This document shows, piece by piece, positions 8,047 through 60,439 of a DNA stretch of 64,000 bases. The translations under genes and the position numbers were made by a program. This stretch comes from a virus. Numbering within the stretch: position 1 is the first letter of the stretch; each line of letters opens with the position of its first letter. The notes under the pieces are model-generated. The model had not been told where the DNA came from. It searched no databases and was given only the letters and a program-made list of their open reading frames with translations. The stretch lies in the IMG/VR virus record IMGVR_UViG_3300005536_000001, one strand, 5' to 3'.

Positions 8047-8062
8047 TAACGTATCATAACAG

Positions 8063-9424: not shown

Positions 9425-9467
9425 TGCGCTATCTTAGCAACAGTGACGTTGCCTTACACGAACGAGA

Positions 9468-9501
9468 GGCTGCGCAGCCACGAGAAAATGACTGCGCAGC
9501 C
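9468..9501 (-). terminator. hairpin after amidase gene (GGCTGCGCAG / CTGCGCAGCC, 10 bp)
   Basis: Two copies of the self-complementary CTGCGCAG motif 14 nt apart. Lies between the amidase stop (9507) and the terminase start (9424). Confidence 0.4.
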
Positions 9502-9506
9502 AGGTG

Positions 9507-10454: not shown

Positions 10455-10462
10455 AATTCCCC

Positions 10463-11155: not shown

Positions 11156-11163
11156 TGGACCTC

Positions 11164-14586: not shown

Positions 14587-14588
14587 TC

Positions 14589-15278
14589 CTAGGCAGTGAA
14601 CGCAGCGATAGCTGCTCGTAGCTTGTTGGCATCCTCGAGACGCTCATGCGCCTTGGAATTGTAAATCGCCTGGACGTTATCCTGCTGATGACGGGCGAGC
14701 CGCTCGTTGTGCGTCGTGTCCCATGGCCCCTTGTTCACAACAGGATGCATGTGCTCGGTGTAGACGTGGTGCAGGTAGGTTCGCCGGCCAATCGTATCAG
14801 CGACTTCAGTGTTCCATGAGTCGTTGTAGTCGGAGCTGAAGTATGGTGGAACCAGGTAGCCTAGTGTGTCAGTCCAGCGGCGATGATAAAAGCCGTGCGT
14901 GGCGAGGTTCGCATCTTGATAGCCATCACGGCCATGGACGAGCACGATCTTGTCGGGAATGCGTGCGAACGCGTCAAGCACGTGTGAGTCCCAGCCTTCC
15001 GATCGGAAGATGATGTCGTCACCACAATGCATGAAGATATCGCTATCCTCATTCGCCTGCATCCAGCAGGCGTTCCACATCTCCGAGAGGATGATGCGCG
15101 GACCAACGACAGCCTTGACGTCAAGACGCTCAGCCATCTCGTAAGATGCCATGTCGTCTTCATCGATGTAGAAGACGAACTCCAGGTCGTCCGGCATTGT
15201 CGCTGTCTTGCGTGCCGAGGTAACCATACGCTGCATGCTGTCGGGACGACCACGCGTGGGGCAAAGAATGCTGATCAT
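14589..15278 (-). CDS. glycosyltransferase-like protein
   Basis: 229 aa. ISILCPTRGRP N-terminus and FVFYIDEDD acidic motif. Confidence 0.6.
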   Translation of the reverse strand: MISILCPTRGRPDSMQRMVTSARKTATMPDDLEFVFYIDEDDMASYEMAERLDVKAVVGPRIILSEMWNACWMQANEDSDIFMHCGDDIIFRSEGWDSHVLDAFARIPDKIVLVHGRDGYQDANLATHGFYHRRWTDTLGYLVPPYFSSDYNDSWNTEVADTIGRRTYLHHVYTEHMHPVVNKGPWDTTHNERLARHQQDNVQAIYNSKAHERLEDANKLRAAIAAFTA

Positions 15279-15297
15279 GTCTTCTCCTTGATGCGAA

Positions 15298-15332
15298 AGT
15301 GCCCGGTCCAGCGGGTTGCTGAACCGGGCACT
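15298..15332 (-). terminator. strong hairpin inside glycosylation operon (possible attenuator or processing site)
   Basis: AGTGCCCGGTCCAGC-GGGTT-GCTGAACCGGGCACT: 14 bp stem with one mismatch. On the minus strand it is followed by UUUCGC and then the RBS AAGGAGAAG of the next gene. Confidence 0.5.
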
Positions 15333-15341
15333 CAGATGAAC

Positions 15342-15974
15342 TTACTTCCAGGCCCTGCCGCTAGTGTGGTTCCCGTGCCAGACCCAGCGCCACGTACGCC
15401 TAGGCGCGTGTACGAACTTCGCGCCTTCACGCAACATCTTCTGCCAGCAGCCCCAGTCCTCGTTGGTTTCGTTCGGCCACTCCTCGGTGCCAGGCTGCGG
15501 GAAGCCACCAACCTTCTCGAGCATTGAGCGCTTCACGAGAACCGTGATGGGAATGAAGTTGCCCTCGGTCATGATGTACCGAGCAGCATCATCACCGAAT
15601 GGAACACCGAGGGGCGAGACGTACTTCCCGTTGTGGAGAACCGAGAGCGGGTCCGGTCCTTCCCACAAGTCAAACCATGGGTACACCAGGTCGGCACCCG
15701 TTGCCTCAGCGGTCTGGAGCAGGAACTCGAGATGATTGGGGTAGATGACATCATCGTCATCGACGAAGGCGATCCAGTCGGTGTCAGGATGCGAGAGCTG
15801 CCACGCCATGTTGCGATTCTTCGCCGCGCCAAGACCTTCGGTGTCGACACGAACGATGATCTCGTCGGCTTGACGTATTTGTGTTTGCACTGACCGAACG
15901 GCACGCTCGAGCATCTCCTCCCGACTAGGAATCGTGGGAATACAAACGGCGATCGTTGCTGCCATGAGTCTCAC
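15342..15974 (-). CDS. glycosyltransferase family 2
   Basis: 210 aa. IAVCIPTIPSR N-terminus. WIAFVDDDDVIYPNHL DxD motif. Confidence 0.8.
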   Translation of the reverse strand: MRLMAATIAVCIPTIPSREEMLERAVRSVQTQIRQADEIIVRVDTEGLGAAKNRNMAWQLSHPDTDWIAFVDDDDVIYPNHLEFLLQTAEATGADLVYPWFDLWEGPDPLSVLHNGKYVSPLGVPFGDDAARYIMTEGNFIPITVLVKRSMLEKVGGFPQPGTEEWPNETNEDWGCWQKMLREGAKFVHAPRRTWRWVWHGNHTSGRAWK

Positions 15975-16162
15975 TTCTCAGGGTCTCGATTGGGAATACC
16001 GAACACAGCACCCAGAGTGACGACGAATGCACCGGCTGCGGTCAACCAATCCGTGAGGTCAATCACCTGATCCTGACTCCCCATCACGAGCGCCGAAATA
16101 AGCGCACCAGCCGCAGCAATCCATGCCTTGGTCGACTCCGGGGAGAACAAAGTCTTGAGCAT
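15971..16162 (-). CDS. two-TM membrane protein (possible holin)
   Basis: ORF track 15971..16252 trimmed to the ATG at 16162, which follows AGGAGG. Helices AWIAAAGALISALVMG and WLTAAGAFVVTLGAVFGI. 4-nt overlap with the next gene. Confidence 0.45.
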   Translation of the reverse strand: MLKTLFSPESTKAWIAAAGALISALVMGSQDQVIDLTDWLTAAGAFVVTLGAVFGIPNRDPEK

Positions 16163-16196
16163 TTCCTGACCTCCTAGACCTTCGACCGACTGGCCG

Positions 16197-16415
16197 TCAG
16201 CCGTCGCTAGATGTCGCTGTCGCCTCTGTCTGGCTGCTAACAGCTTCCCCACTAGGGAAATTACCAGCTACCACCTCGAGTCCGCTAGGGAGGTGACAGC
16301 GACACCTGCACGTCATGTCATTAGGCAGTGGAAACAGACCACAGCGATCGTGCGCACCCTTCGCAGTGCTGTTGCAGAAGCCGGAAACGTACGTGCTAGC
16401 TTTCTTGACCTTCAC
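16197..16415 (-). CDS. Cys-rich hypothetical protein (C..C.C.CH motif)
   Basis: Part of ORF 16197..16514. GTG at 16415 follows GAAAGGTGG. Sequence GFCNSTAKGAHDRCG...CRCRCH. Start is uncertain. Confidence 0.35.
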   Translation of the reverse strand: MKVKKASTYVSGFCNSTAKGAHDRCGLFPLPNDMTCRCRCHLPSGLEVVAGNFPSGEAVSSQTEATATSSDG

Positions 16416-16659
16416 CGTACACCACCTTTCCATCTTCGTCGGTGGCCTGATGCGTGTCCCACTCGCCACTGAGCTCAAGACTGTATGTTTGGCCCCAACC
16501 ACCACACCGAGCACAGATGCCGGGTGTGTCGATCAAGCCACTCTCGACGAGATCAGCGACTGCACTGTGCACACCCTCTTCATCGATCGTTTTCTGTGGA
16601 ATTTCCACTTCCACAGACGCACTTGCGGTTGTGGTGAAGTACACCGTGAATTTAGGCAC
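16396..16659 (-). CDS. hypothetical protein
   Basis: 87 aa ORF, co-oriented. Overlaps the upstream gene by 8 nt. Confidence 0.55.
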   Translation of the reverse strand: MPKFTVYFTTTASASVEVEIPQKTIDEEGVHSAVADLVESGLIDTPGICARCGGWGQTYSLELSGEWDTHQATDEDGKVVYGEGQES

Positions 16660-17020
16660 GTGCCCGTCCCTTCCACTTCATCTTGAAACCGGCAACCCAG
16701 TCACCGCGAAAAGTGAACACTCGCTCGGCACCGTCGATCTCAACCGAAATGGTGTGCCATGGAATATTGCCATCCACTTCAGGATCTTCCACCGTCACGA
16801 GCCAGATCTTAAAGCTCCTCAAAGCATCTTCATAGTCGACGCCCTTCCACGGCAATGGAATGTCATTGATTCCGGCGACCGAGAACACAACATCAAACCA
16901 CAGCTCGGGCTCACCATCATGCGTTGTGACCTGCTGCATTCGACGGGCTTCCAATTCGTTCTTGTACGCACGATGCTCTGCGATCTCAGCGTCCATCCAA
17001 CCCACCGGACTTCTCCTCAC
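16652..17020 (-). CDS. hypothetical protein
   Basis: 122 aa ORF (GTG at 17020; alternative ATG at 16996). Confidence 0.55.
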   Translation of the reverse strand: MRRSPVGWMDAEIAEHRAYKNELEARRMQQVTTHDGEPELWFDVVFSVAGINDIPLPWKGVDYEDALRSFKIWLVTVEDPEVDGNIPWHTISVEIDGAERVFTFRGDWVAGFKMKWKGRARA

Positions 17021-17102
17021 TTGCTTTCCCTATGTTCCTGACGTTTCCTGCTTTCCTAAGTATATCCAACACATACTACACGTGATGTCTAAAGTGTATG
17101 TA

Positions 17103-17186
17103 TCACGTGTACATCCAGAGGATTCCGGTAATCACGAAAATGAGCAACGAAGTGATGGCAATGATTACCCGGAATGCGAGCGACAT
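17103..17186 (-). CDS. 27 aa single-pass membrane micro-protein
   Basis: MSLAFRVIIAITSLLIFVITGILWMYT. The ATG is 1 nt after the upstream stop (TAAAATG). Below the ORF-track size cutoff. Confidence 0.3.
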   Translation of the reverse strand: MSLAFRVIIAITSLLIFVITGILWMYT

Positions 17187-17187
17187 T

Positions 17188-17592
17188 TTAGCTCGACGTG
17201 TCCTCAGCTTTAGGAGTGGGCAGGATGGTGTAGTCACGTACATCATCGGGCAAACCGATAAACGCACTCTTCAACGAGATGAACGACGTGGACTCAGCTG
17301 GTGCCTTAACTGGCGCACCTTGCGGCCTAACATTATGATGCTCGAGAACGACAACGGTGTCGAGTGGGGTGACATATTCACCAACGAGAAGATCATGGAA
17401 GATGTCCTCATCGGTGACAGGCTCAAGACGCTCAGCCTTGTCACGATCTGGAAAGTGCAGGTCCAGCAGGTCGCCGATGAACGTAGGCGGAATGCTGTCA
17501 GGCGTGTGCACGTTGAATCCGCCTTCCCAGCATTCTGCTTCAGTCATCAACGCGTTAAAGATCAACGGCTGTTCCAATTTGAGTTTTGGCAC
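17188..17592 (-). CDS. hypothetical protein
   Basis: ORF track 17188..17610 begins at a TTG that overlaps a TATAAT box. GTG at 17592 follows AGGAGA and is the more likely start. Confidence 0.55.
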   Translation of the reverse strand: MPKLKLEQPLIFNALMTEAECWEGGFNVHTPDSIPPTFIGDLLDLHFPDRDKAERLEPVTDEDIFHDLLVGEYVTPLDTVVVLEHHNVRPQGAPVKAPAESTSFISLKSAFIGLPDDVRDYTILPTPKAEDTSS

Positions 17593-42948: not shown

Positions 42949-43635
42949 CTACGGACGAGGATCGTCGTTAATATCCTGCATCTGGTTCGGTGCGATGACG
43001 CGCAAGTGCCCAAGAATTTGCTTTGCCATCTCGCAGATCTCCACATCAGCGTGCTCGCTAAAGCGCATGTGAATCACGTGTCGCCATGCACGAATGTTTC
43101 CCGTGACGACGATGCGCGTCTCGTGTCCGCCTGGGAGCACGGCCCTAGCCGCTTGCCTCGCCTGCTTACGCTTGTAGCCTTCTTTCATCATCGTGTCAAC
43201 GATCTCATCATAAAAAATCTTCGCGTCCTGATGGAAGTGATCGATCTTCTCCACGAGTCCAGAGAGTGACGCATCTCCCATGATGTCTGGTGGAATGATC
43301 ATCTTGCCATACGACTCATCGACGTACCGTTGCGACTGGACAGAAAACGAAAGATGCCTGTGGCGGGTCAGCTCGACGAGCAGATTTCGGCTCACCTCTG
43401 TGAGACGGAACGTCGCACTCGAGTGTTCCATGATCGACGTGTGATCAATCTCAAGGATGTGCTTGAGGTAATCCTCATTGTCCGACGTCTTCGGATTAGG
43501 CCGGTGAAAAGACTGGTAGCATTCGCGGCCACCGAGCTCCGCGAGGTGATCGGCCGCTGCCGTTCCACGCTGATACTCCAAGACCTCAAGTGCAGTAGGC
43601 GTGATGGCCGTGAACGCGAGCAGGTCAACCTTCAT
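42949..43635 (-). CDS. thyX: FAD-dependent thymidylate synthase ThyX
   Basis: 228 aa. ThyX signature RHRHLSFSVQSQRY. Confidence 0.9.
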   Translation of the reverse strand: MKVDLLAFTAITPTALEVLEYQRGTAAADHLAELGGRECYQSFHRPNPKTSDNEDYLKHILEIDHTSIMEHSSATFRLTEVSRNLLVELTRHRHLSFSVQSQRYVDESYGKMIIPPDIMGDASLSGLVEKIDHFHQDAKIFYDEIVDTMMKEGYKRKQARQAARAVLPGGHETRIVVTGNIRAWRHVIHMRFSEHADVEICEMAKQILGHLRVIAPNQMQDINDDPRP

Positions 43636-46419: not shown

Positions 46420-48783
46420 TCACGACCTCAAACTGTTCAACCATGACGTAGTTCCATTGGCGAACTTAATGCCTCGATAACCCCGACCCTTCTCCCCATT
46501 AATCGAAATCGCACCTGGCGGCCGCTCAATGCCATGTCCAACAAGTGCCTTACCCAAGACAGCAGCGTTGAACTTATCAACACCGCGCAAGCCATGTTCC
46601 ACAGCCCATCGTTCGTACGCAGCATAAAGATCTTTATTAAAGAGCGCGTCCCCGCTATTGCCCGTCCTAATCAATACATCATCGATGAATTGCCCAACGT
46701 AGTCCTCTTCATCACGATAAGATTGCACATCTGCCTTGATGCTGTCCGGAATTCCGAGTCCGCCAAGCTCGCGGTAACCCTGCAATCCTTCCAGTGCCCA
46801 GCGTAGGATGCCCGACGCTTCCTCCGAGTACAACAAATCTCCATAGCCAGCAATCGCCTTACCAGGCGCAATCTTTCCATGACAGACAACCCGATGCATT
46901 CGATTCCAGACACCATCACTGGGATCCCGAATCGTAGGCTGCCCATTTCCGGCAATCCACAATTTGAACTGCGCGTCGAACTCATAGAAGTTTTTGTTCA
47001 TCTTCCGGGCTTTGACACGCTTTGACCCGGTCAACGCCTTCAGTCGCTCGACGTTAAGCGCCTTACCCTGTCGTGTCTCATCGATGAAGACCAGCCGTGC
47101 TCCTTGGAGATCCGCCAGGATCGTCGGGTGCTGCTCATCACCACCGGTCAACAATGCAGTGGTGGCGGTCTTCGCGTAACTTCCCATCACCATCATAAGC
47201 GGCTCAACGAATGCATTTTTACCGTTACTTCCCGTTCCCTCCATGAAGAAGAACGATCGCGCGCCGACATTACCGGTGAGCGAATATCCAGCAGCACGCT
47301 GCAGGTACGCCATCAGAATGGGATCACCATTACAGACAAAATGTACGTGAGACAACCACCGCTCGAACGGTGCATCCTCGACGTAATCCACTTCAGCCAA
47401 GTGACTACACAGCTCATCTCTCCTTGACTCGCGCAACTTCCCAGTGAGCAAATCCAGTGTGCCGTTGCGTACCACCAGGATATTGGGGTCGCTATCCATA
47501 TCAGTCGTGTTGATAACCAAGCTAGGCTCGGACTCTGCGCCCGCGATCATTGCTTTACGACGAGCTAGACTTTCCGAGTCTCTTGCCCAGTTGAGCCAGC
47601 GGGTGCGGTCATCTCCCTCCGCAGCGATAGCATCAGCACGAATGGCATCGACGACATTCTTAGTGAGTTCCATGACACGGTTCGTGTCGTCGGGACACCA
47701 GCGAACGTCATCCCAGACATACCACTGATCTTCACGCACCGCGTACCTGATGCGATCTCCAAGCAACTGCACCATCCGCATGGAGTTACCCATGTCAGTG
47801 GCGAGTGCTTCACGTGGTGGCAGCTCGTTAACTTCAGTGAGCGCCTGTCCACCAGCGAGTCGCTGTGCGTACGCAAGAGCCCCTGGACCCAAACCCTGCA
47901 TCATTCCACTACTCAAGCCAGGCGAGTAGGTGCGCCGAACCCGATCCACCATCTCGATGATGTCACTCGCGGTCCAGGGTTGCTCACCCGGAACGTTCTC
48001 CATGCGCTGAAGAAGCAGCATCCCAACGCTGATCATCTCGACGCGTCGGAAGTTCCTTGCACGCATAGAGCACATATAGTCGAACAACCGCGCGTTCTGC
48101 TCACCCGGCGGCAGACCGTGCTCGAACATCGCATCGACATTGATGACCTGACCGTCTTGCCCGGTAAGCGGTGAATCATCACCACTGTGATCTTCACCGC
48201 TGCCAGACGTCCGAGGACCACTACCTGCTTGCAGCCCCGCGACCCACTCATCAGGCAGCGCAGGGAACTCCCCCAGTCCGGGGATGTCATCCAAGACCGT
48301 GTTATCCGGCGCGAGCCACTTGTACGTCTCATTGATGTCAGGATGCACAGACGGCCACACCATGGCAAACCGGTGTCCGAAGCGGATGATCTCGACGTTC
48401 GATCCGGTGCCAAGATCCGACTTCCAGTTCAAGCCAGGCGGAACCCGGAAGAACCTGATGCCCGAGCCATCGGTTCTCGCACTGGACCTGGGTGAAAGCG
48501 GCAATACACAATCCAGCTGTGATTCCCACCACTCGATGGTCTCGAGACCCTTACGCCCGTCATATGCATCGACATCGATACCAATGATGTCATCAGGCAT
48601 ACGCAGACCGATGTTATCAGTGCCCCGGACATTCACCCAGTCATCAATGACGGCATCAGTAGGCCATGCACCGTTATACCCGGTGTACCCAGTCGGTGCC
48701 ATTCGTTTACCCACAATAGGCAGCACACCCTGCCAACCAGCATTGCGGTAAAGCTCCGCGGCCTCCCCATACGGCCCCGTCAT
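46420..48783 (-). CDS. bifunctional DNA primase-polymerase / D5-type helicase
   Basis: 787 aa. N-terminal prim-pol motifs (IGLRMPDDIIGIDVDAYDG). C-terminal Walker A MEGTGSNGKN. Confidence 0.85.
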   Translation of the reverse strand: MTGPYGEAAELYRNAGWQGVLPIVGKRMAPTGYTGYNGAWPTDAVIDDWVNVRGTDNIGLRMPDDIIGIDVDAYDGRKGLETIEWWESQLDCVLPLSPRSSARTDGSGIRFFRVPPGLNWKSDLGTGSNVEIIRFGHRFAMVWPSVHPDINETYKWLAPDNTVLDDIPGLGEFPALPDEWVAGLQAGSGPRTSGSGEDHSGDDSPLTGQDGQVINVDAMFEHGLPPGEQNARLFDYMCSMRARNFRRVEMISVGMLLLQRMENVPGEQPWTASDIIEMVDRVRRTYSPGLSSGMMQGLGPGALAYAQRLAGGQALTEVNELPPREALATDMGNSMRMVQLLGDRIRYAVREDQWYVWDDVRWCPDDTNRVMELTKNVVDAIRADAIAAEGDDRTRWLNWARDSESLARRKAMIAGAESEPSLVINTTDMDSDPNILVVRNGTLDLLTGKLRESRRDELCSHLAEVDYVEDAPFERWLSHVHFVCNGDPILMAYLQRAAGYSLTGNVGARSFFFMEGTGSNGKNAFVEPLMMVMGSYAKTATTALLTGGDEQHPTILADLQGARLVFIDETRQGKALNVERLKALTGSKRVKARKMNKNFYEFDAQFKLWIAGNGQPTIRDPSDGVWNRMHRVVCHGKIAPGKAIAGYGDLLYSEEASGILRWALEGLQGYRELGGLGIPDSIKADVQSYRDEEDYVGQFIDDVLIRTGNSGDALFNKDLYAAYERWAVEHGLRGVDKFNAAVLGKALVGHGIERPPGAISINGEKGRGYRGIKFANGTTSWLNSLRS

Positions 48784-50611: not shown

Positions 50612-51790
50612 GTGGAACAGATCAACGATAAGCTCGTCAACTTCGCGTCCATTCTCGAAGACCAGACACGCAAGCAGGCCGAGCAGACTTCAACGATGCC
50701 GTTCATCCACCCACACGTTACGCTCATGCCCGACGCGCATCTCGGCCGTGGAAGTACCGTCGGCTCCGTGATTCCGACGCTCGGTGCCATCATGCCAGCA
50801 GCGGTCGGCGTGGATATCGGGTGTGGAATGATCGCAGTGCGCACGCAGTTCACCAAGCATGACTTCACGGAATCCGAGAAGTCTCTCACGGCGCTTCGGG
50901 AGCTGATCGAAGCAACCATCCCGACGTCGGCCGGCAAGTACAACACGGAACTCACGAACACCGCCAAGTTGCGCATTGACATCCTCAAGAGGAAGGCTCT
51001 CGAGTCCGCCGAGTTCAACCCGAGCGACTACTCGCACAACTGGGAACTCCAGCTTGGCACTTTGGGTGGCGGCAACCACTTCATCGAGATCACCATCGAC
51101 GAAATGGATCGCGTGTGGCTCTTTCTCCACTCGGGCTCACGCGGTGTTGGCAACAAGATCGCGCAGCGACACATCAAGATCGCGGCGCAGCAGTGCGAGA
51201 AGCGATGGATCAGCCTTCCGAACCCGGACCTCGCGTACCTCGTCGAGGGTGAGCCCGAGTTCTGGCGCTACATCCGCGAGATGCGGTGGGCTCAGGAGTT
51301 CGCATGGATGAACCGCGAAGAGATGATGGATCGTCTCATGCTGTGTGTTGAGGAGTGGAGTGGTGAATCGATCGAGGTGCAGGACACGGTGAACTGTCAC
51401 CATAACTACACCATGTCCGAAAAGCACTTCGGCAAGCAGGTGTGGCTGTCTCGCAAGGGTGCCATTGATGCGTCACTTGGTACCATGGGTCTCATCCCAG
51501 GTTCGATGGGAACGGCATCGTACGTGGTCGAGGGCAAGGGCAATCACGTCTCGCTCAACTCTTCACCACACGGCGCGGGACGCAACTTCTCGCGTAAGGA
51601 GGCACGGAAGATGTTTACGCATGACGATCTTCGTGAAGCGATGAAGGGCATCGAGTATCGTGACTCCGCGGCGTTCGTGGACGAGATCCCCGGCGCGTAC
51701 AAGGACATCGACGTCGTGATGGCCGATTCCACCGATCTCGTCACCGTCAAGCACACGCTTCATCAGATTCTCAATGTGAAGGGCGACTAA
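50612..51790 (+). CDS. rtcB: RNA ligase RtcB (3'-phosphate/2',3'-cyclic phosphate to 5'-OH)
   Basis: 392 aa. GTG follows AGGAGAG. Motifs DAHLGRGSTVGSV, GVDIGCGM, GGGNHFIE, HSGSRGVGN, CHHNY, GSMGTASYVV, SSPHGAGR. Confidence 0.9.
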   Translation: MEQINDKLVNFASILEDQTRKQAEQTSTMPFIHPHVTLMPDAHLGRGSTVGSVIPTLGAIMPAAVGVDIGCGMIAVRTQFTKHDFTESEKSLTALRELIEATIPTSAGKYNTELTNTAKLRIDILKRKALESAEFNPSDYSHNWELQLGTLGGGNHFIEITIDEMDRVWLFLHSGSRGVGNKIAQRHIKIAAQQCEKRWISLPNPDLAYLVEGEPEFWRYIREMRWAQEFAWMNREEMMDRLMLCVEEWSGESIEVQDTVNCHHNYTMSEKHFGKQVWLSRKGAIDASLGTMGLIPGSMGTASYVVEGKGNHVSLNSSPHGAGRNFSRKEARKMFTHDDLREAMKGIEYRDSAAFVDEIPGAYKDIDVVMADSTDLVTVKHTLHQILNVKGD

Positions 51791-52364: not shown

Positions 52365-53354
52365 ATGCGTAAGTTCATCGCGGCCGGCGTCGTCGGCGTT
52401 CTCTCGCTCGTGCCGGTGATTCTGTGCTCACCATCGGCCAAGTCGCAGGTCACCGACTCGGTACCGAGTGGCGTGTGTAAGATCGACGGTATGTGGAAGT
52501 TCACCGAATCACGTGCGCACTCCCCGGTGCGAGTCCAGGACTTCGTGCCTGACGGTCTCATACTTGACATCACAGGACCGCGTGCGCAACAAGATCCGAC
52601 GACAGTCTCCCCAGCAGGCGGGAAGGTTGCCGGCTATGTGGCCGTCACGCCAACTCTGCTCGCTGATGTTGATATCGCCTCACTGGACTTCGTGCAGTCG
52701 GTCGGCTCAGCAAAGCCGGGCTACCAGCTCGTCGTTGACCGCACGCCTTCCGATCCCGATGATGGCTACGATGGCATTCTCGTCGGTGAACCCAGTGCGT
52801 ATGGCGATATCTGGTGGGCATCAAAGCCATCACGATGGGTTGGTGGTCCGGAGAACATCACCGTACCGACGAACACGGACGTGGACGGGACGCTCGCTGA
52901 TTTCGCCGGGTTTGACCCGGATGCTAAAGTTGTCGCTGTCGGCTTCTCGCTTGGCACCTTGGGTGTCGGCACCGAAGCACGTGGTGTTCTCAAGACGTTG
53001 ACGTTCAATGACAGTGTCTGGAACTTCAGCCTGTGCACTCCAACTGAAACGACTACGACGACTTCACCGACCAGCACGACAACGACCACCTCTACAACCT
53101 CCTCTACCACCGCCACGACAACTACCCCACTGACAACTACCAGTACTACGTCTATGACGTCTGTCGAGAGTTCTACGTCGGCTACAACGTCGACTACGCA
53201 GCCCGCGGTAGTTCCGGTTGGCTCTACCTCTGGACTTGCGAACACGGGAACATCAGAAATTGGCACGTACCTGGGAATCGCAGGATTCCTGATCGCACTC
53301 GGACTTGGTTCGTTCGTTTGGCTGCGTGTCCAGCTCAGGCGCGAACAAGTTTAA
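52365..53354 (+). CDS. cell-wall-anchored surface protein (LAxTG sortase signal)
   Basis: 329 aa. N-terminal signal peptide. Thr/Ser-rich stalk. C-terminal LANTG followed by a hydrophobic helix and an RVQLRREQV tail. Confidence 0.75.
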   Translation: MRKFIAAGVVGVLSLVPVILCSPSAKSQVTDSVPSGVCKIDGMWKFTESRAHSPVRVQDFVPDGLILDITGPRAQQDPTTVSPAGGKVAGYVAVTPTLLADVDIASLDFVQSVGSAKPGYQLVVDRTPSDPDDGYDGILVGEPSAYGDIWWASKPSRWVGGPENITVPTNTDVDGTLADFAGFDPDAKVVAVGFSLGTLGVGTEARGVLKTLTFNDSVWNFSLCTPTETTTTTSPTSTTTTTSTTSSTTATTTTPLTTTSTTSMTSVESSTSATTSTTQPAVVPVGSTSGLANTGTSEIGTYLGIAGFLIALGLGSFVWLRVQLRREQV

Positions 53355-53515: not shown

Positions 53516-54253
53516 ATGTCTCGTCGTCTCATCTCGGTCGTCATGCTTCAGCGCACGCTCAAGGCGCGAGTCAGCACGGTCGTGAACGAAGCATACAAGA
53601 ACGTGCAGAAGGCGCCACTCTTCGCGGGTATCGCGCGTGAGTACACTCCCAAGGCAGAAGAGGGCCAGAAGCTTCCGTCTGAGGCACTTCAGGTCCAGCT
53701 GGTGGCCTCTTCGCTGATCAGTGCCATTGCGACTGATCTCGGTCAGCTGTGGGACCTGACCGCAACGCGTGACGCGGGTAACCAGGTTGCCAAGGGCAAC
53801 GTTGTTGTGCGTGGCCGTGTCATCCTGAACGACGTCTCGAGCAGCAACCTCCTCTTCCTGGAGAAGCAGCTCATCGATGTTCGTACGTTCATCACCGCGT
53901 GCCCCGTGCTCGACACGGCCAAGGAGTGGACGACCGACGAGATCACTGGCATCAGTCGCACCCGGCCGGTCGAAACGACCCGTTCGGAGAAGATCGAGGA
54001 AACGGTCGTCGTGGTGCCGCCCAACGAGCGTCACCCGGCACAGACTCGTGATCGCGTGCGTGACCAGATCGTCGGCACGTGGGCCACGACTCACCTCTCT
54101 GGTGCACTCACGGCGCTCCAGCAGCACAAGCTGATCAATCGCGTGAACGAGCTCATCGACGCGGTGAAGATCGCGCGTGAGGAAGCCAACCTCGTCACCG
54201 TCGAGGACGTGAAGGTCGGCGACGCTCTCTTCGGCTTTCTGCTCGAAGAGTAG
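53516..54253 (+). CDS. hypothetical protein
   Basis: 245 aa ORF lying directly upstream of the tRNA-like cluster. Confidence 0.6.
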   Translation: MSRRLISVVMLQRTLKARVSTVVNEAYKNVQKAPLFAGIAREYTPKAEEGQKLPSEALQVQLVASSLISAIATDLGQLWDLTATRDAGNQVAKGNVVVRGRVILNDVSSSNLLFLEKQLIDVRTFITACPVLDTAKEWTTDEITGISRTRPVETTRSEKIEETVVVVPPNERHPAQTRDRVRDQIVGTWATTHLSGALTALQQHKLINRVNELIDAVKIAREEANLVTVEDVKVGDALFGFLLEE

Positions 54254-54345: not shown

Positions 54346-54433
54346 TACACGGGAGCTCACTCGGTTCAGAGCATCCTGGCTGACTGTGGTGGTGAAGCCA
54401 GGAAGGTTGCGGGTTCAAATCCCGTCCGTGTAG
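54346..54433 (+). tRNA. tRNA-like gene with expanded anticodon arm (anticodon not assignable)
   Basis: Acceptor TACACGG/CCGTGTA. D arm GCTC-ACTCGGTTCA-GAGC. T arm GCGGG-TTCAAAT-CCCGT. The anticodon position holds an 8 bp stem (TCCTGGCT/AGCCAGGA) with a 14 nt loop. Confidence 0.45.
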
Positions 54434-54765: not shown

Positions 54766-54837
54766 CGACACGTAGCTCACTTGGCAGAGCAACAGACTAT
54801 TAATCTGTATGAACCGGTTCGAATCCGGTCGTGACAA
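54766..54837 (+). tRNA. tRNA with anticodon loop CTATTAA (anticodon ATT)
   Basis: 72 nt cloverleaf. D arm GCTC-ACTTGGCA-GAGC. Anticodon stem ACAGA/TCTGT. T arm ACCGG-TTCGAAT-CCGGT. Acceptor CGACACG/CGTGACA has C1-A72 and A3-A70 mismatches. Confidence 0.55.
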
Positions 54838-54846
54838 CACTTCTAT

Positions 54847-54914: not shown

Positions 54915-55235
54915 ATGGGAGCTATGATCAGCGAACCCTCTGGACCCCGTGAGCCTGCGGTCAGTGTAGTCAACCTGCCGCCAGTGATCCGAGAACCGGC
55001 CCCAGAACCTCCTCTGCCACTCGAACGACAGGTCGGGGGTAACCACTACCGGGGCTTGGCGATTCAGCCAATCGAGTACATCCTGGCGAACTCACTGGAC
55101 TTCTGCCAAGGTAACGTGATCAAGCTCGTCACTCGGTACCGCGATAAGGGCGGTATCGAGGATCTCAACAAGGCTATCCACTACATCGAATTCATGAAAG
55201 CACAGGCAAATGACGAAGATGCCTCAACCCTCTGA
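54915..55235 (+). CDS. DUF3310-like protein
   Basis: 106 aa. QVGGNHY, IQPIEYI, GNVIKLVTRY, EDLNKAIHYIEF. RBS AGGAGAG. Confidence 0.6.
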   Translation: MGAMISEPSGPREPAVSVVNLPPVIREPAPEPPLPLERQVGGNHYRGLAIQPIEYILANSLDFCQGNVIKLVTRYRDKGGIEDLNKAIHYIEFMKAQANDEDASTL

Positions 55236-55449
55236 TGCGCCTAAGCCCGGCTTCATCCGGGTAAAATACGAGTTGGTGTACACGAGCGATGTTCCACTCA
55301 GTGCTTACCCTGATATGTCAGTGGAAGAAGCCGTCAAGTTCGAACTTGAAAGTGATGTTGAGACAATCATCGAAGCCATCACTGGTTCAGATGGCGCTGA
55401 AGATGATAGACTCATCGTAAGGTGTAATGCAGAGTACATCACCGAGTAA
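55210..55449 (+). CDS. hypothetical protein
   Basis: 79 aa ORF. Overlaps the upstream gene by 26 nt. Confidence 0.5.
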   Translation: MTKMPQPSDAPKPGFIRVKYELVYTSDVPLSAYPDMSVEEAVKFELESDVETIIEAITGSDGAEDDRLIVRCNAEYITE

Positions 55450-55467
55450 CGATCAAAGGAAAGTAAG

Positions 55468-56433
55468 ATGCTCATCATATTGGAAGGGCCGGATTGTAGC
55501 GGAAAATCAACTCTTGCGAGCAAACTAGCGTGTGAACTCGAGAAGCGATTTCCCGATAACACCGTGACTCTTCTCCACAAGGGTCCACCGGAAGTACACC
55601 CACTTGACGAATATGAAACACCCCTGCTGGACTATCGTCCACAGCGAGGTCATCACATCATCTGTGATCGTTGGCATTGGGGTGAAAGTGTTTATCCCAC
55701 AGTGTTGAACCGTCCAACGCTCATGGATGACGGTGTTCGTCTTCACATCGAGATGTTTTTGCGTTCACGCGGTGCCATCGTTGTACACGTGTCGGCCAGC
55801 GACCGTGTACTTGATCAGTGTATCTCTCGTCGCGGTGATGATCTCATCGAGGCAGGTAAGGGACATCAGCTCAACGAATTGTATGAAATCGTTGCGCAAT
55901 CAAGTCTTCTGCCTATCGTCAACGTGGATGGTCGGCACGTGATTGATGACACGATCCAAGCAATCATTCACCGTGCAGGTATCGAGTCGACAGCGGCCGT
56001 GAAGCTAAATCCATTCACGACGTACATCGGACCGCCGTCACCGCGCATGCTTCTTATCGGCGATGTGCGACACCATGTCGATCCTGATGCTTCTGCATCT
56101 GATCCTCGGCCTGCATTCATGCCATATCAGTCAACCTCTGGGCATTTCCTCACTAATGTACTTGCGCGACACGCTGACATTCGCGAACTTCGCACGATGG
56201 GTATTGTCAACGCATGCGATGTGGATGACATCGATCTTCTGCGTCATATGCTCGATAGGCCTACATCGGTTGCTCTTGGACGCAAAGCATTCAAAGCTGC
56301 GCACTGGGCTGACTGGCCGGTGTCACACCCACAATTCATTCGTCGTTTCAAGCACAGCACAGGTTCGACATACGTGAACGATATTCTTGGTCGCGGTCGG
56401 ACAGATTTTTATGATCGTGTTGAAAGGCTCTGA
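55468..56433 (+). CDS. thymidylate-kinase-like dNMP kinase fused to a uracil-DNA-glycosylase-superfamily-like domain
   Basis: 321 aa. N-terminal ILEGPDCSGKST P-loop and CDRWHWGESVY (Tmk-like DR motif). C-terminal LLIGDVRH, FMPYQSTSGHFL, GIVNAC, VALGRKA, VSHPQF, in the order of UDG-superfamily motifs. Confidence 0.6.
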   Translation: MLIILEGPDCSGKSTLASKLACELEKRFPDNTVTLLHKGPPEVHPLDEYETPLLDYRPQRGHHIICDRWHWGESVYPTVLNRPTLMDDGVRLHIEMFLRSRGAIVVHVSASDRVLDQCISRRGDDLIEAGKGHQLNELYEIVAQSSLLPIVNVDGRHVIDDTIQAIIHRAGIESTAAVKLNPFTTYIGPPSPRMLLIGDVRHHVDPDASASDPRPAFMPYQSTSGHFLTNVLARHADIRELRTMGIVNACDVDDIDLLRHMLDRPTSVALGRKAFKAAHWADWPVSHPQFIRRFKHSTGSTYVNDILGRGRTDFYDRVERL

Positions 56434-57302
56434 TGGAACTGAAGCTGAACGACCTGCGCGGCGATTACGTCAAGTTGGTCAATTACATCATCAATAAGGG
56501 TGAAAGCGTTTCAGCACGTGGAATTCCAACACGTGAACTCACTGCAGTGACGTTGATTGTTCCCAACACCCTTGAGCCGCTACTTCCAGTCGGTGTTGGC
56601 CGTGGTGTGAACTTGAAGCTTGCGGCGCTTGAGGCGCTCCAACTCATCTCTGGAACTCCACGCTCCGACCTAGTCAGGGTAGCTGCTCCAACGTTCGAAA
56701 GTGTCCTGGTGGATGCTACGGACCCTGATTACGGTGCCTACGGACCTCGCGTGGTGCAGCAACTCGCGGACTGCATCGAACTTCTCAAGGAGGATCCGTC
56801 CAGTAGGCAAGCCATCGCAGTCATCTGGACCAAAGCTGACCTACGGCACATCGGTGACAAGCCATGCACCGTGTTCTTTCAGTTCCTCATCCGTGAAAGC
56901 GGTCACGGCTTCCCAGCTCTCGAAATGCACACGCATATGCGCAGCCAGGACGTGTGGTTGGGCGTACCGTACGACTTCTTCATGTTCACCCAACTTCAGC
57001 ACACCATCGCATACGAACTGCACATGCCGGTGGGCAGGTACGTGCATCACACGACGAGTCTGCACATCTACGAGCGTGACATCGAAGCAGCGGGTAAGTT
57101 GCACATGCCAACTGATTTCACGTTCATCGATTTGCCGCTCGGCGTATGCTCAGCGAGTCGTGATGCATCCTCACTGGACGTCGCAGCGTATCTCCTCGAG
57201 GGCAACACCACGCAGGAGGAAGATGAAGCCAACCCGTGGTACACCAAACAACTCGACCTGATCGAAGCACTTCTTCCCAATGAAAACGTGGTGTCAGCGT
57301 GA
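56433..57302 (+). CDS. ThyA-family pyrimidine C5 transferase, Asp variant (candidate dCMP hydroxymethylase/methylase)
   Basis: 289 aa. Catalytic KPCTVFFQF. RSQDVWLGVPYDFFMF aligns to the ThyA motif RSCDVFLGLPFNIASY, with Asn replaced by Asp. Start overlaps the upstream stop. Confidence 0.65.
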   Translation: MELKLNDLRGDYVKLVNYIINKGESVSARGIPTRELTAVTLIVPNTLEPLLPVGVGRGVNLKLAALEALQLISGTPRSDLVRVAAPTFESVLVDATDPDYGAYGPRVVQQLADCIELLKEDPSSRQAIAVIWTKADLRHIGDKPCTVFFQFLIRESGHGFPALEMHTHMRSQDVWLGVPYDFFMFTQLQHTIAYELHMPVGRYVHHTTSLHIYERDIEAAGKLHMPTDFTFIDLPLGVCSASRDASSLDVAAYLLEGNTTQEEDEANPWYTKQLDLIEALLPNENVVSA

Positions 57303-57991
57303 GTGACGAAGATAACATCAACGAACAGCGCATCTATGAAGATGATACACAAACGAAGCCAATCGGTTTCGTGTGGCAAGTCAACGTGATATTGCCAAGT
57401 GGTGCAAAAGAAAAGCACTACGCATGGAGTTCGGTGCAAGGATACAAGTCTCCATTCTTCTGCACAACCCGCACAGCTGCCATCGCAGCACTTCGTGAAC
57501 ATTCCAAGTTGCCTGTGAAAAAGACCCGTCCCTCGATGGACCAGACACTTATGCAAATGGCAAAGCTGATGGCAGATCGTGCCACCTGTTCGCGTGCCCA
57601 AGTCGGTGCTGTCATTGTCATTGAGACGAGGCCAGTGTCCAGTGGATACAACGGCACAGCGACCGGACTTCCACATTGCAATCACGCATGCGACTGCACA
57701 AAGCTTCCGACGAACCCTGACCCCAAGCACCATTGGGCTGACTGCAACTCAAGGCAACCTTGCCGATTCAGCGTGCACGCTGAAGCTAATGCCATCGCAT
57801 TCGCCGCGAAAAACGGCGTGTCAACTAATGGTGCTACGTTGTACACGACCATGGCTCCCTGTCTCGAGTGCGCCAAGCTGATCGTGAACGCGGGCATTGT
57901 TCGTGTCGTTGCGGCATCGCAATACCGTGATGATAGCGGTACACGCTTGCTTCATCAGCTCGGTGTGGAAGTACGCGCAGAACTTCTCTAG
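57299..57991 (+). CDS. dCMP deaminase family protein with ~80 aa N-terminal extension
   Basis: 230 aa. HAEANAI and PCLECAKLI zinc motifs. Cys/His-rich insert. GTGA overlap with the upstream gene. Confidence 0.8.
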   Translation: MSDEDNINEQRIYEDDTQTKPIGFVWQVNVILPSGAKEKHYAWSSVQGYKSPFFCTTRTAAIAALREHSKLPVKKTRPSMDQTLMQMAKLMADRATCSRAQVGAVIVIETRPVSSGYNGTATGLPHCNHACDCTKLPTNPDPKHHWADCNSRQPCRFSVHAEANAIAFAAKNGVSTNGATLYTTMAPCLECAKLIVNAGIVRVVAASQYRDDSGTRLLHQLGVEVRAELL

Positions 57992-58013
57992 TGTTAGGAA
58001 CATAGGAACTTAG

Positions 58014-58127
58014 ATGGAAATCATAATCGTTCTTGCGGCAATTGCGTTTTTCTATGGTCTTGGGCGTAGGCATGGTCGTCGTGCTGTGCAGCGTCAGGCA
58101 CGTGTGTTTCTTGACTGGTTGAAATAG
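58014..58127 (+). CDS. 37 aa single-pass membrane micro-protein
   Basis: MEIIIVLAAIAFFYGLGRRHGRRAVQRQARVFLDWLK. Weak RBS AGGAA. Confidence 0.35.
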   Translation: MEIIIVLAAIAFFYGLGRRHGRRAVQRQARVFLDWLK

Positions 58128-58136
58128 GAGCAAGCG

Positions 58137-59933
58137 TTGAGTCTTGATGAAGTCAAGGGCATTCATCTGATCGATAACATCGAGACCGCGTGGGAGTGTC
58201 AAAGATGGATGTCGACATGCGATGAAATTGCAGTCGACACCGAGGGCACCGGTTTGAACACACGTATCGATAAGGTACGTCTTCTCCAGTTCGGTGATCG
58301 ACAGACCGCGTATTGCATTCCCATCGACTTCCCCGGCTGGGGAGCATTCGGCGCAGACATGCTCAAGCGCTTTCAAGGAACGTACGTTGCGCACAACCTG
58401 ACGTATGATGCCGACATGATCCGTGGCACTCTTGGATACTCACTCCCAGAGTCCAGGTGTCATGACACTCGACTTATGTCGCACGTGCTCGAATCAACCG
58501 GCTCCACAGCACTCAAGACTCTTACTCGTCGTCTGGTCGATAGGCGCGCAGGCAACTTCCAGCATCAACTGGACGATGCGATGAAGGCAGGTGGCTGGAA
58601 CTGGGCCACCGTGCCGATCGATCTTGAAGCCTATTGGATGTATGGTGGGCTTGACACCATCCTCACCATGCAGCTCAAGGACGAGCTCTATCCACGGGTG
58701 ATGGCTGAGGCACCTAAGTCATACGAACTTGAACTTGCGGTGTCATGGGTCGCTCGACGCATGGAGAACAAAGGCGTCGTTGTCGATCGTGAGTACACGC
58801 AAAAGTTGATGGATGAACTCGATGCATATGTGAAGTCGGCCGAGAAGTGGTGTCATGACGTTCACGGCATCTCACCGGGTGCCAATGCAAAGGTCATCGA
58901 AAAGCTTCAGTCATTCGGAGTCGAGTTCACCAAGATGACCGGTGGTGGTCAATACTCACTAGACAAGGAGGTTCTCGAGAGCATTGACCACCCGCTAGCA
59001 GCAACTGTTCTCAACCGCCGGCGTGCGCAGAAGATGGTGTCGACCTACCTGGCAAACTATCTTACGATGTCGGAGTGGGATGGCAAGATCCATCCATCGA
59101 TCAACACCGTGGGTGGCACCGATAAGAACCCATTCGAGCCTGGTGGTGGCTCTGGTGTTCGCACGGGTCGCATGTCGATGAGTGACCCTAATCTACAAAA
59201 TGTCCCAATCAGGACTAAGTTCGGGCGAAAAATTCGCAACTGCTTCACTGCATCAATTGATCACCGGTGGGCCAAGGCCGACTTTGGGCAGATCGAAATG
59301 CGGGTCATGGCGCATATGTCCCAAGACCCGGGGATGATTGCTGCGTTTATGACGCCCGGTGACTTCTTCGTTAACATGGGTGTGCAACTTTTTCACGAGC
59401 CGAGTTTCACAAAGGCAGATCCTCGTAGGCAGCTGCTTAAGAACGGTGGCTATGCGAAGATCTATGGCGCAGGCATCCCGAAATTTGCTAAGACCGCAGG
59501 TGTGCCTGAAGATGAAGCCGGACAATTCATGCGGGACTTTGACAAAATGTACAGTCGAGTCCCCGAATGGATTAAGGAAGTTGAGAGTGAAGGCCGTGCC
59601 AATCTCAACTTGACCGGTGAAGCATTCGTGCGTTCACCACTCACTGGACGCAAGCACACTGCTGATGCAGGTAAGCTGTACACCTTGGTTAACTATGAAA
59701 TCCAGGGAACGGCAGGTGAGATTCTTAAGATGAAGATCGTGGAAGCTGATGCCGCCGGACTTGGGCCATACATGACAATTCCCGTGCACGACGAGATCGA
59801 CTTTGACATTCCTAATGATGATTTCGATGACGTCATGCACACCATTGAACTCGTCATGAATGATGATAAACTTCTCACAGTTCCCATTACCTCATCGATT
59901 GGCGTCGGGCAGCGTTGGGGAGAGGTAGAATAG
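58137..59933 (+). CDS. DNA polymerase I (family A) with 3'-5' exonuclease domain
   Basis: 598 aa with TTG start. Exo motif IAVDTEGTGL. Pol motifs ADFGQIEMRVMAH, RQLLKNGGYAKIYG, VHDEIDF. Confidence 0.9.
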   Translation: MSLDEVKGIHLIDNIETAWECQRWMSTCDEIAVDTEGTGLNTRIDKVRLLQFGDRQTAYCIPIDFPGWGAFGADMLKRFQGTYVAHNLTYDADMIRGTLGYSLPESRCHDTRLMSHVLESTGSTALKTLTRRLVDRRAGNFQHQLDDAMKAGGWNWATVPIDLEAYWMYGGLDTILTMQLKDELYPRVMAEAPKSYELELAVSWVARRMENKGVVVDREYTQKLMDELDAYVKSAEKWCHDVHGISPGANAKVIEKLQSFGVEFTKMTGGGQYSLDKEVLESIDHPLAATVLNRRRAQKMVSTYLANYLTMSEWDGKIHPSINTVGGTDKNPFEPGGGSGVRTGRMSMSDPNLQNVPIRTKFGRKIRNCFTASIDHRWAKADFGQIEMRVMAHMSQDPGMIAAFMTPGDFFVNMGVQLFHEPSFTKADPRRQLLKNGGYAKIYGAGIPKFAKTAGVPEDEAGQFMRDFDKMYSRVPEWIKEVESEGRANLNLTGEAFVRSPLTGRKHTADAGKLYTLVNYEIQGTAGEILKMKIVEADAAGLGPYMTIPVHDEIDFDIPNDDFDDVMHTIELVMNDDKLLTVPITSSIGVGQRWGEVE

Positions 59934-59935
59934 CA

Positions 59936-60439
59936 ATGACAATCATCAAACCTCTCGGCCTCATCATTGGTGTCGATCCGGGTACAAGCATGGGCATTCT
60001 TGCGCTTAAACTCCACAACACATACGCAGAACGCATACACTTCCTCCAGACTGACGTTTCGACGGCAGTAAACTGGCTGGAAGAGACACTCTACGCCATC
60101 AACAAGGGTCCAGAGGGTGTACTAATCGCTTGCGAGCGGTACACAGTAACTCCGGAGACCGGAAAGCGAACTCAGCAGCCAACCGCTCTCCAAGCGATTG
60201 GAAGCGTCAAAATTTTCGCTGAGCGGTTTAATGCCCGTCTCGTTATGCAGCCGCCTGCTGATGCAAAGAAGCTTGCGACAAATGAAATGCTCAAACGACT
60301 GGACTTCTACACCACGCCAAAGGAAGTCAACCTACCCGATGCAAACGACGTAAATGACGCAGGACGTCATGCGACACTTGCTCTCGCTCGCTTCAAAGCA
60401 TCCATCTTTGATGCAATGCTTGCCAATTCGGGTGTCTGA
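59936..60439 (+). CDS. RuvC-like Holliday junction resolvase
   Basis: ORF 59915..60439 trimmed to the ATG at 59936, which follows GGGGAGAGG. GLIIGVDPGTSMG and DANDVNDAGRHA motifs. Confidence 0.7.
   Translation: MTIIKPLGLIIGVDPGTSMGILALKLHNTYAERIHFLQTDVSTAVNWLEETLYAINKGPEGVLIACERYTVTPETGKRTQQPTALQAIGSVKIFAERFNARLVMQPPADAKKLATNEMLKRLDFYTTPKEVNLPDANDVNDAGRHATLALARFKASIFDAMLANSGV

Follow-up and report, generated by a model that had tools for sequence, protein, structure and literature searches.

A putative T-even-like nucleotide-pool module for cytosine replacement in a soil phage contig of apparent actinobacterial host

Phage T4, a representative of the T-even hydroxymethylcytosine pathway, uses the hydroxymethylase gp42, the deoxynucleoside monophosphate (dNMP) kinase gp1, the deaminase cd, the ThyA-type enzyme td, the dCTPase gp56 and alpha- and beta-glucosyltransferases. 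The UDP-arabinose cassette of phages RB69 and DLP3 holds an arabinose-5-phosphate isomerase and the bifunctional kinase/pyrophosphorylase AfhE (PMC13326640). In the verified 5-hydroxymethyluracil (5hmU) phages, a hydroxymethylase of the thymidylate synthase (TS) superfamily with Asn at its base-reading site acts directly on dUMP (gp58 of Pseudomonas phage M6; gp29 of SPO1, PMC5175136). Here we analyse a stretch of 64,000 nucleotides of the IMG/VR virus record IMGVR_UViG_3300005536_000001 (the window), which is part of a 95-kb soil-metagenome phage contig and for which detailed gene annotation covered everything beyond the first 33 kb. Positions 55468-57991 carry a module of three overlapping genes followed by the gene of a family A DNA polymerase (PolA). 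Judging from the sequences, we think it rather probable that this module forms one half, the nucleotide-pool half, of a T-even-like pathway by which an actinobacteriophage replaces cytosine, with 5-hydroxymethyl-dCTP (hm-dCTP) being made before replication. The most likely outcome is DNA in which cytosine is replaced by 5-hydroxymethylcytosine (5hmC), probably decorated with a sugar later, as an escape from host restriction.

The three genes encode a kinase fused to a domain with a uracil-DNA glycosylase (UDG) fold, a ThyA-like protein and a dCMP deaminase (Table 1), and their open reading frames (ORFs) lie exactly where the original prediction had placed them. The kinase/TS-like junction is TGATG (stop 56431-56433, start 56433) and the TS-like/deaminase junction is GTGA (start 57299, stop 57300-57302). 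Because of these stop/start overlaps, the three genes can be regarded as translationally coupled. A megablast search with positions 55000-60000 against 50,697 phage genomes returned no match, and relatives are detectable at the protein level only.

The ThyA-like protein belongs to the TS superfamily. Its residues 12-222 match the thymidylate synthase profile PF00303 (E 2.8e-25, 89 bits, cutoff 24.3), with the alignment stopping at profile position 220 of 266. Individual sites were mapped in E. coli ThyA numbering, and E. coli ThyA, T4 gp42, RB69 gp48 and M6 gp58, all taken from public records, served as controls. In HMMER alignments with solved TS structures and in MAFFT alignments with E. coli ThyA, residues 170-185 with the motif RSQDVWLGVPYDFFMF are placed against ThyA RSCDVFLGLPFNIASY (beginning at R166 and containing N177-IASY). 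Asp181 falls in the column of Asn177 in both, as the original prediction had it. The catalytic Cys146 and Glu58 correspond to C145 and E67. The residues that bind the phosphate and the 3'-OH are also kept (R29 for R21, R125 for R126, R170 for R166, H211 for H207 and Y213 for Y209), S171 and Y103 are the equivalents of S167 and Y94, and R127 is replaced by Gln126.

The likely product of such an enzyme can be read from a few discriminating sites. N177D makes the enzyme prefer dCMP (Lee et al., NAR 2026, PMC13326640), and Asp at this site is common to the cytosine-using enzymes MilA, BcmA and T4 dCMP hydroxymethylase, whereas TS and the SPO1 dUMP hydroxymethylase have Asn (PMC5175136). An acidic residue at the L143 site (L143D/E), where Leu is thought to keep water out, correlates with a hydroxymethyl and not a methyl product, and D169N, present in every tested enzyme of that type, marks the flavin-dependent 5-hydroxy-dCMP (5hodCMP) synthases (PMC13326640). 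Ser at the S167 site goes with deoxyribose substrates, unlike Ala176 of MilA (PMC5175136). Our controls showed the published residues: E60, D145, C148, D171 and D179 in T4 gp42, L143E, D169N and N177D in RB69 gp48, and a kept N177 together with L143D in M6 gp58, the hydroxymethylase of a 5-hydroxymethyldeoxyuridine (5-hmdU) phage.

At these sites the ThyA-like protein has D142 (L143), D173 (D169) and D181 (N177), the first two of which match gp42 D145 and D171. With Ser at the S167 site in addition, it displays every residue by which we define the T4 gp42 type. It departs from canonical ThyA at Asn177 and Leu143, in the absence of the shielding tryptophans (there is a gap at W80 and a Val at W83) and in the lack of the C-terminal closure segment. 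The NCBIfam thymidylate-synthase equivalog scores are all far under their cutoffs. It does not have the Asn177 of dUMP hydroxymethylases or the Asn of 5hodCMP synthases at the D169 site. Hence, the D/D/D signature and the kept catalytic residues are those of a T4-type 5hm-dCMP synthase, not of ThyA, a dUMP hydroxymethylase or a 5hodCMP synthase, and we predict on this basis that the protein is a dCMP hydroxymethylase. The original prediction had allowed for either a 5-hydroxymethyl- or a 5-methyl-pyrimidine pathway. The acidic L143 site favours the former, with dCMP as the substrate, and disfavours the latter.

Asp181 and the diagnostic signature do not vary among 23 metagenomic homologs (46-83% identity), nor do they in about 27 further loci (28-99% identity). 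Such invariance in about 50 homologs makes the substitution a fixed family trait, neither a chance event nor a sequencing error. C145, E67, R29, R125, R170, H211 and Y213 are likewise invariant in the family. The C-terminal extension (residues ~224-289) is not TS-like but family-specific and contains an invariant NPWY motif. In BLAST searches, RB69 gp48 gave the protein a better match (E 7e-19) than T4 gp42 did (E 5e-6, ~25% identity).

The same two Asp residues, at the N177 and L143 sites, were found in an enzyme of Pseudoxanthomonas phage PW916 (OL960029; L010 3280-4098) annotated as 'deoxyuridylate hydroxymethyltransferase'. Judged by its residues, this enzyme more likely uses dCMP than dUMP, and the annotation is most likely similarity-based. 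The same preference of dCMP over dUMP may hold for a match in the related Stenotrophomonas phage AXL3. We had considered that a verified dUMP hydroxymethylase might carry Asp at the N177 site, and discarded this idea on the evidence of M6 gp58.

The deaminase matches PF00383 (E 2.7e-25), the dCMP deaminase family PHROG 174 (4.6e-53) and TIGR02571 ComEB (1.4e-27). Its translation contains both zinc motifs intact, VHAEANA (HAE) and PCLEC (PCxxC). Profile and motifs identify it as a dCMP deaminase of the ComEB/T4 cd type, with a substrate range that is predicted. Its N-terminal extension is poorly conserved and matches near-identical contigs only. The deaminase of a relative with 60% identity (L039) is 150 aa long, and a separate gene of 86 aa comes after it.

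The ThyX assignment is clear-cut, with a TIGR02170 score of 157.7 bits (cutoff 87.9) and the RHRxxS motif TRHRHLSFSVQSQRY (RHRHLS) in the translation. The closest sequences are mycobacteriophage ThyX proteins (50-53% identity). ThyX gives the phage its own means of turning dUMP into dTMP. Two further claims of the original prediction, that this ThyX is genuine and that the ThyA homolog is unlikely to be a second thymidylate synthase, have both held up, the latter on account of the cytosine-specifying Asp and the presence of ThyX. PolA follows the three-gene module in all of the 17 IMG/VR loci, DSL-LC01 and Phendrix described below, and it is the polymerase that would need to incorporate a modified dNTP.

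The original prediction also described the kinase as a fusion protein, which is correct, and its previously unnamed partner can now be assigned a UDG fold. The kinase half matches PHROG 761 'thymidylate kinase' (1.2e-13) and, over residues 2-152, YorR (PDB 2axp, E 1.1e-7). Pfam gives a weak P-loop match on the fusion protein; its Tmk profile stays under threshold here, yet matches several homologs. An AlphaFold2 (AF2) model of the whole fusion, built on 30 homologs, has a pLDDT of 91 and a pTM of 0.90, and Foldseek matches it to YorR (2axp/3kb2) and thymidylate kinases with a probability of 1.0 and a TMt of 0.78 to YorR. G7, D9, K13, D67 and R68 are invariant in the kinase homologs. The protein thus combines a P-loop NMP-kinase fold, a Walker A motif, DR[YHW] and an Arg-rich lid, which define the YorR-like dNMP kinases. 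From sequence and model together, the domain is a putative YorR/Tmk-like deoxynucleotide monophosphate kinase, and its acceptor is predicted. We also considered a DNA kinase of the 5-hydroxymethyluracil DNA kinase (5-HMUDK) type, as in SP10, PhiW-14 and M6 gp54, and rejected it at the sequence level: against M6 gp54, BLASTP gave E 3.0 and hhalign a probability of 48% over 49 columns that lie outside the P-loop.

As the kinase dominated the fold search with the whole protein, the C-terminal domain (residues 176-321) was modelled separately (AF2, pLDDT 85). The best 30 Foldseek matches in the PDB are all family-4 UDG, UdgX or MUG. They are led by 1l9g (E 6.1e-5, probability 1.0, TMq 0.58), and the matches to 1ui0, UdgX and 4zby have a probability of 1.0 and TMq of 0.52-0.59. 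Thermotoga and Thermus family 4 enzymes and a Sulfolobus UDG are among the matches. In a viral structure library, the domain matches UDGs of the stand-alone COG1573 kind as well as UDG domains that are fused to phage PolA. A profile search of the domain against PDB sequences found no UDG, only spurious matches (e.g., a de novo TIM barrel), and hhalign against an approximate T. thermophilus UDG sequence was insignificant (E 0.2). Since the sequence-level searches were insignificant, the UDG assignment is one of fold comparison.

In family-4 UDGs, motif A reads GE[A/G]PG and motif B reads HPS, and a 4Fe-4S cluster is bound by four Cys ligands. The domain described here shares their alpha/beta fold but has GDVR and HPQ in place of the two motifs and a single conserved Cys (C250), with none of the four Fe-S cysteines. 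Its conserved motifs are GD[V/R]R, PAF.P..TSGH, N.CD.DD and HPQ..RRF. In our own by-eye reading, GD.R may correspond to motif A, PAF to the stacking Phe, N248 to the Asn and HPQ to motif B. The first three of these positions recur in one alignment, which is statistically insignificant, and motif B was placed by eye. Compared with family 4 enzymes, the domain is ~45 residues shorter, has an additional invariant acidic cluster (NACDVDD) and shows no significant sequence similarity to solved UDGs. Furthermore, it is fused to a nucleotide kinase and neither stands alone nor forms part of a PolA fusion. Both halves of the fusion are shared by 364 homologs of 300-350 aa. A profile search with the domain against 1.84 billion representative proteins gave 1210 matches. 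In nearly all of the best 150 of these, it occupies residues ~175-320 of proteins of 300-360 aa, and the fusion is therefore essentially obligate. The domain is, most simply, a putative repair module recognising uracil or 5hmU and kept beside nucleotide-supply enzymes; most likely it would bind or excise a flipped-out pyrimidine (uracil or 5hmU) in phage DNA. Our literature search found no published description of a kinase-UDG fusion.

The kinase-UDG, TS-like, deaminase and PolA genes form a block conserved in 17 IMG/VR loci (38-99% identity) and in DSL-LC01, a metagenome-assembled Actinomycetia phage. The block is also present in the cultured Gordonia phage Phendrix, where the UDG-like half is not detectable. 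The genes listed at the end of Table 1 belong to the parent contig, and their order recurs in relatives of 57-115 kb. The run of five genes from the glycosyltransferase to the C5 cytosine DNA methylase lies beyond the window end (L008 15522-20757, window coordinates ~66213-71448), and the dUTPase_2 gene is ~13 kb downstream of the module. The SIS isomerase shares 27% identity with the arabinose-5-phosphate isomerase gp55 of RB69 (E 4e-13), and RB69 gp52 is similar to the C-terminus of the 502-aa protein (E 6e-5). For the glycosyltransferase, searches of PHROG, NCBIfam and PDB sequences gave no match, and no homolog turned up among cultured phages; its class is assigned from the weak Pfam match alone.

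The sugar genes are brought next to the TS-like gene in an unrelated 66-kb viral contig (L028, IMGVR_UViG_3300014205_000022). There, an uninterrupted gene run at 7384-17422 encodes a MazG/PRA-PH NTPase, an HNH protein, a C5 methylase, a TS homolog with D/D/D at the three sites, a Tmk-like kinase (200 aa, no UDG domain), a 153-aa protein, a glycosyltransferase (48% identical), a nucleotidyltransferase (37% identical), a DNA polymerase and ThyX. This arrangement links the sugar genes and the TS-like gene in function. ThyX was also found in another relative (L023).

Pointers to an actinobacterial host are the WhiB and Lsr2 genes of close relatives, the similarity of ThyX to that of mycobacteriophages and a 329-aa protein encoded in the window. 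The latter has a signal-peptide-like N-terminus, a long Thr/Ser-rich linker and, at its C-terminus, LANTG, a hydrophobic segment and a basic tail. By sequence, it looks like an LAxTG sortase-anchored cell-wall protein, which fits such a host; class E sortases of actinobacteria use LAxTG.

From the observed genes, domains, folds, diagnostic residues, conservation and synteny, we infer the following catalytic steps and modified base. A dCTPase/dUTPase-family enzyme, which would remove dCTP and/or dUTP, would supply dCMP together with host turnover. The ThyA-like enzyme, going by its active-site signature, would convert dCMP and methylene-tetrahydrofolate to 5-hydroxymethyl-dCMP (hm-dCMP), which the kinase domain of the fusion would phosphorylate to the diphosphate, as it probably would dTMP. 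Host NDP kinase would then yield hm-dCTP for incorporation by the adjacent phage PolA. By analogy with T4 cd and td, the deaminase would divert part of the dCMP pool to dUMP, from which ThyX would make dTMP. After replication, the glycosyltransferase probably decorates the hydroxymethyl group of 5hmC. The sugar is plausibly arabinose, activated by the AfhE-like nucleotidyltransferase-kinase and the arabinose-5-phosphate isomerase, as the conserved neighbourhood and its homology to the RB69/DLP3 cassette suggest.

The locus resembles T4 in the TS-superfamily enzyme with its gp42 residues, in having a dNMP kinase, in a dCMP deaminase that would feed a separate dTMP synthase and in the presence of an all-alpha NTP pyrophosphatase and a glycosyltransferase on the genome. 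It differs in the C-terminal extension of the ThyA-like protein, in the route to dTMP (ThyX here, a ThyA-type enzyme in T4), in the kinase (YorR/Tmk-like with a UDG-fold domain here, gp1-like in T4), in the polymerase (family A here, family B in T4) and in the actinobacterial host. Furthermore, a pentose (arabinose-like) donor is suggested here, whereas T4 uses host UDP-glucose. The clusters of RB69, DLP3 and RL38J1 likewise contain a TS homolog that carries N177D and L143D/E, a glycosyltransferase with a 'nucleotide kinase' of the YorR/Tmk type close to it and to the TS homolog, an arabinose-5-phosphate isomerase of the SIS-only kind, an AfhE-like bifunctional enzyme and a dCTPase (PMC13326640). 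However, D169 is kept here, the glycosyltransferase is unrelated in sequence, and the genes form two blocks ~8 kb apart instead of a single cluster. The 5-hmdU systems of SPO1 and M6 likewise have a TS-superfamily hydroxymethylase with Asp at the L143 site, a dCMP deaminase and a P-loop kinase. They differ at the N177 site, in the kinase, which here shows no specific similarity to M6 5-HMUDK, and in the DNA-glycosylase-like partner, which has a helix-hairpin-helix fold there and a UDG fold here. Host phylum, ThyX with PolA, the kinase type with its UDG-fold fusion and the pairing of a hydroxymethylase signature with an arabinose-type cassette thus set this locus apart from both the T-even scheme and RB69/DLP3/RL38J1.

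Other readings of the same genes have to be considered. In one of them, which we regard as unlikely, the ThyA-like enzyme makes 5hm-dCMP, the deaminase converts it to 5hm-dUMP, and the DNA carries 5hmU or a derivative; a modified dUMP made by the deaminase had been suggested in the original prediction as well. In its favour, T-even dCMP deaminases accept hm-dCMP in vitro, and the TS-like and deaminase genes, whose adjacency is conserved across the clade, overlap. The PW916 enzyme, with its Asp at the N177 site and its dUMP-related name, also adjoins a dCMP deaminase, but that name was given by similarity only. The retention of ThyX, here as well as in L023 and L028, implies a demand for dTMP and, as the substrate of ThyX, for dUMP. 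The verified 5hmU enzymes have Asn where this one has Asp, no kinase resembling 5-HMUDK was found in the comparison with M6 gp54, and the annotated genes include no aGPT-Pplase or other 5-hmdU-type hypermodification gene. The suggestion of a modified dUMP is therefore not borne out, and a role like that of T4 cd, i.e. dUMP supply for dTMP synthesis, would be the simpler one by analogy. An improbable alternative is an enzyme of the kind reported for Xanthomonas phage XP12, a dCMP methyltransferase, which would make 5-methyl-dCMP and place 5-methylcytosine in the DNA. The N229D variant of L. casei TS (the N177 site), studied by Liu and Santi, is reportedly a dCMP methylase, and the folate-binding D169 is retained in our protein. 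Asp142 at the L143 site, as in all hydroxymethylases compared, speaks against methylation, and so do the absence of Trp80 and Trp83 and the replacement of the TS closure segment by an unrelated extension. Moreover, the conserved glycosyltransferase and sugar-activation cassette need a hydroxyl acceptor, and a separate C5 DNA methylase would be redundant.

We see only a slim chance that the enzyme is a flavin-dependent 5hodCMP synthase like RB69 gp48, with arabinosylated 5-hydroxycytosine in the DNA as in RB69 and DLP3. The downstream isomerase and AfhE-like enzyme resemble the cassette of those phages, and gp48 is the closer of the two BLAST relatives, but the D169N substitution of that enzyme type is absent and D173 is invariant throughout the clade. 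It is very improbable that the module is an ordinary nucleotide-salvage cluster with a redundant or degenerate thymidylate synthase in a phage with canonical DNA. Databases and published annotations do speak of thymidylate synthase and thymidylate kinase; however, Asn177 is replaced in every member, ThyX already makes dTMP, and the strong conservation of all catalytic residues argues against decay. The preferred reading, T-even-like replacement of cytosine by 5hmC, has several points to its detriment. The L143 and D169 rules are correlations from few tested enzymes, mostly of Gram-negative phages, and a hydroxylase that retains D169 or a methylase with L143D is conceivable. The glycosyltransferase has no detectable similarity to characterised DNA glycosyltransferases and could act on virion proteins instead, like some glycosyltransferases of mycobacteriophages. 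The dUTPase_2 protein may be a dUTPase only. No AfhF-like HAD phosphatase was seen near the sugar genes in the parent contig and the relatives inspected. Lastly, a conserved C5 methylase, catalytically plausible by its PPC motif, lies beside the sugar genes. Under full replacement of cytosine this methylase would be without a substrate, which suggests a partial replacement or another role.

Table 1. Features of the window and of the adjoining part of the parent contig.
Feature	Coordinates	Strand	Remarks
Kinase-UDG fusion gene	55468-56433	+	321-aa ORF; ribosome-binding-site-like AAAGGAAAG upstream
Kinase domain, residues ~1-172	55468-55983	+	P-loop GPDCSGKST; DRW (D67-R68-W69); lid RRGDD
UDG-superfamily fold domain, residues 176-321	55993-56430	+	AF2 model and Foldseek
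ThyA-like gene	56433-57302	+	289-aa ORF; PF00303
dCMP deaminase gene	57299-57991	+	230-aa ORF; PF00383
Deaminase N-terminal extension	57299-57523	+	75 residues
PolA gene	58137-59933	+	PF00476 (E 6.3e-69); PF01612 (E 3.8e-12; 3'-5' exonuclease)
ThyX gene	42949-43635	-	PF02511 (E 8.8e-47); TIGR02170 (E 2.9e-46)
Prim-Pol/D5-type primase-helicase	46420-48783	-	
RtcB RNA ligase	50612-51790	+	
LANTG protein	52365-53354	+	329 aa
DUF7873 protein	53516-54253	+	E 1.9e-77
tRNA-like match	54355-54425	+	Sub-threshold, 23 bits
tRNA-Asn	54766-54838	+	ARAGORN; Rfam tRNA 57.7 bits
DUF3310 protein	54915-55235	+	106 aa
37-codon ORF	58015-58128	+	MEIIIVLAAIAFFYGLGRRHGRRAVQRQARVFLDWLK
SNF2 helicase			Starts inside the window, runs past its end
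PD-(D/E)XK nuclease			Parent contig, after SNF2 helicase
RecA-like AAA_24 protein			Parent contig, after PD-(D/E)XK nuclease
DUF669 single-strand-binding protein			Parent contig, after AAA_24 protein
Glycosyltransferase			434 aa; parent contig, after DUF669 protein; weak Pfam Glyco_trans_1_2
Nucleotidyltransferase-kinase			502 aa; after glycosyltransferase; N-terminal sugar-phosphate NTP_transferase, C-terminal APH-like HGDLNFNN kinase motif
Arabinose-5-phosphate isomerase			197 aa; after 502-aa protein; SIS only, KpsF/GutQ-type
dUTPase_2 protein			198 aa; after isomerase; dimeric-dUTPase family, also matches dCTP pyrophosphatase 1
C5 cytosine DNA methylase			411 aa; after dUTPase_2 protein; PPC and ESV motifs

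Several other features lie near the module. The DUF3310 gene is directly upstream of it; PHROG families with DUF3310 are often labelled 'nucleotide kinase', apparently because of DUF3310-kinase fusions elsewhere. Between the DUF7873 and DUF3310 genes, in a gap of 660 nt, lies a tRNA-Asn with the unusual anticodon ATT, with a second, weaker tRNA-like match upstream of it. The 37-codon ORF between the deaminase and PolA genes encodes one hydrophobic helix with a basic tail and was called as a gene by the metagenome pipeline in one assembly. The genes for the RtcB RNA ligase and the primase-helicase are also nearby.

A more specific and tentative suggestion, to which we give a modest chance, has two parts: this widespread, uncultured actinobacteriophage clade may have pentosylated (arabinosyl-type) 5hmC in place of cytosine, and the obligate kinase-UDG fusion may be a new kind of enzyme that couples base-flipping recognition of a pyrimidine, modified or damaged, within DNA to a nucleotide kinase. 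Such a fusion may, for example, serve in the repair or editing of deaminated 5hmC or phosphorylate the hydroxymethyl group in DNA. Arabinosyl-5hmC was claimed for RB69 and later corrected to arabinosyl-5-hydroxycytosine (PMC13390438). Given this correction, and as we found no confirmed natural arabinosyl-5hmC in the literature, a genuine example would be new. Our literature searches returned nothing relevant on 5hmC or dCMP hydroxymethylase in actinobacteriophages, nor on DNA modification in GodonK or Phendrix.

Hypermodifying their DNA is a major way in which phages counter restriction enzymes and CRISPR, and the T-even hydroxymethylcytosine pathway has been studied essentially in phages of Gram-negative hosts. 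If our reading is true, 5hmC-type DNA is made by a large clade of actinobacteriophages from soil and freshwater, to which hundreds of metagenomic contigs, DSL-LC01 and cultured Gordonia phages with the core module belong. The enzymes used would be different ones, namely ThyX, a kinase of the YorR type with a fused UDG fold and a polymerase of family A, and the clade would have sugar-activation genes of its own. Actinobacteria commonly have modification-dependent (type IV) restriction enzymes, and such phages would explain why. The active-site triad 143/169/177 offers a quick and testable way of sorting phage 'thymidylate synthase' annotations by product. The clade would also be a source of new enzymes for making modified DNA, and its genomes would likely be under-recovered or mis-called by modification-sensitive sequencing chemistries.

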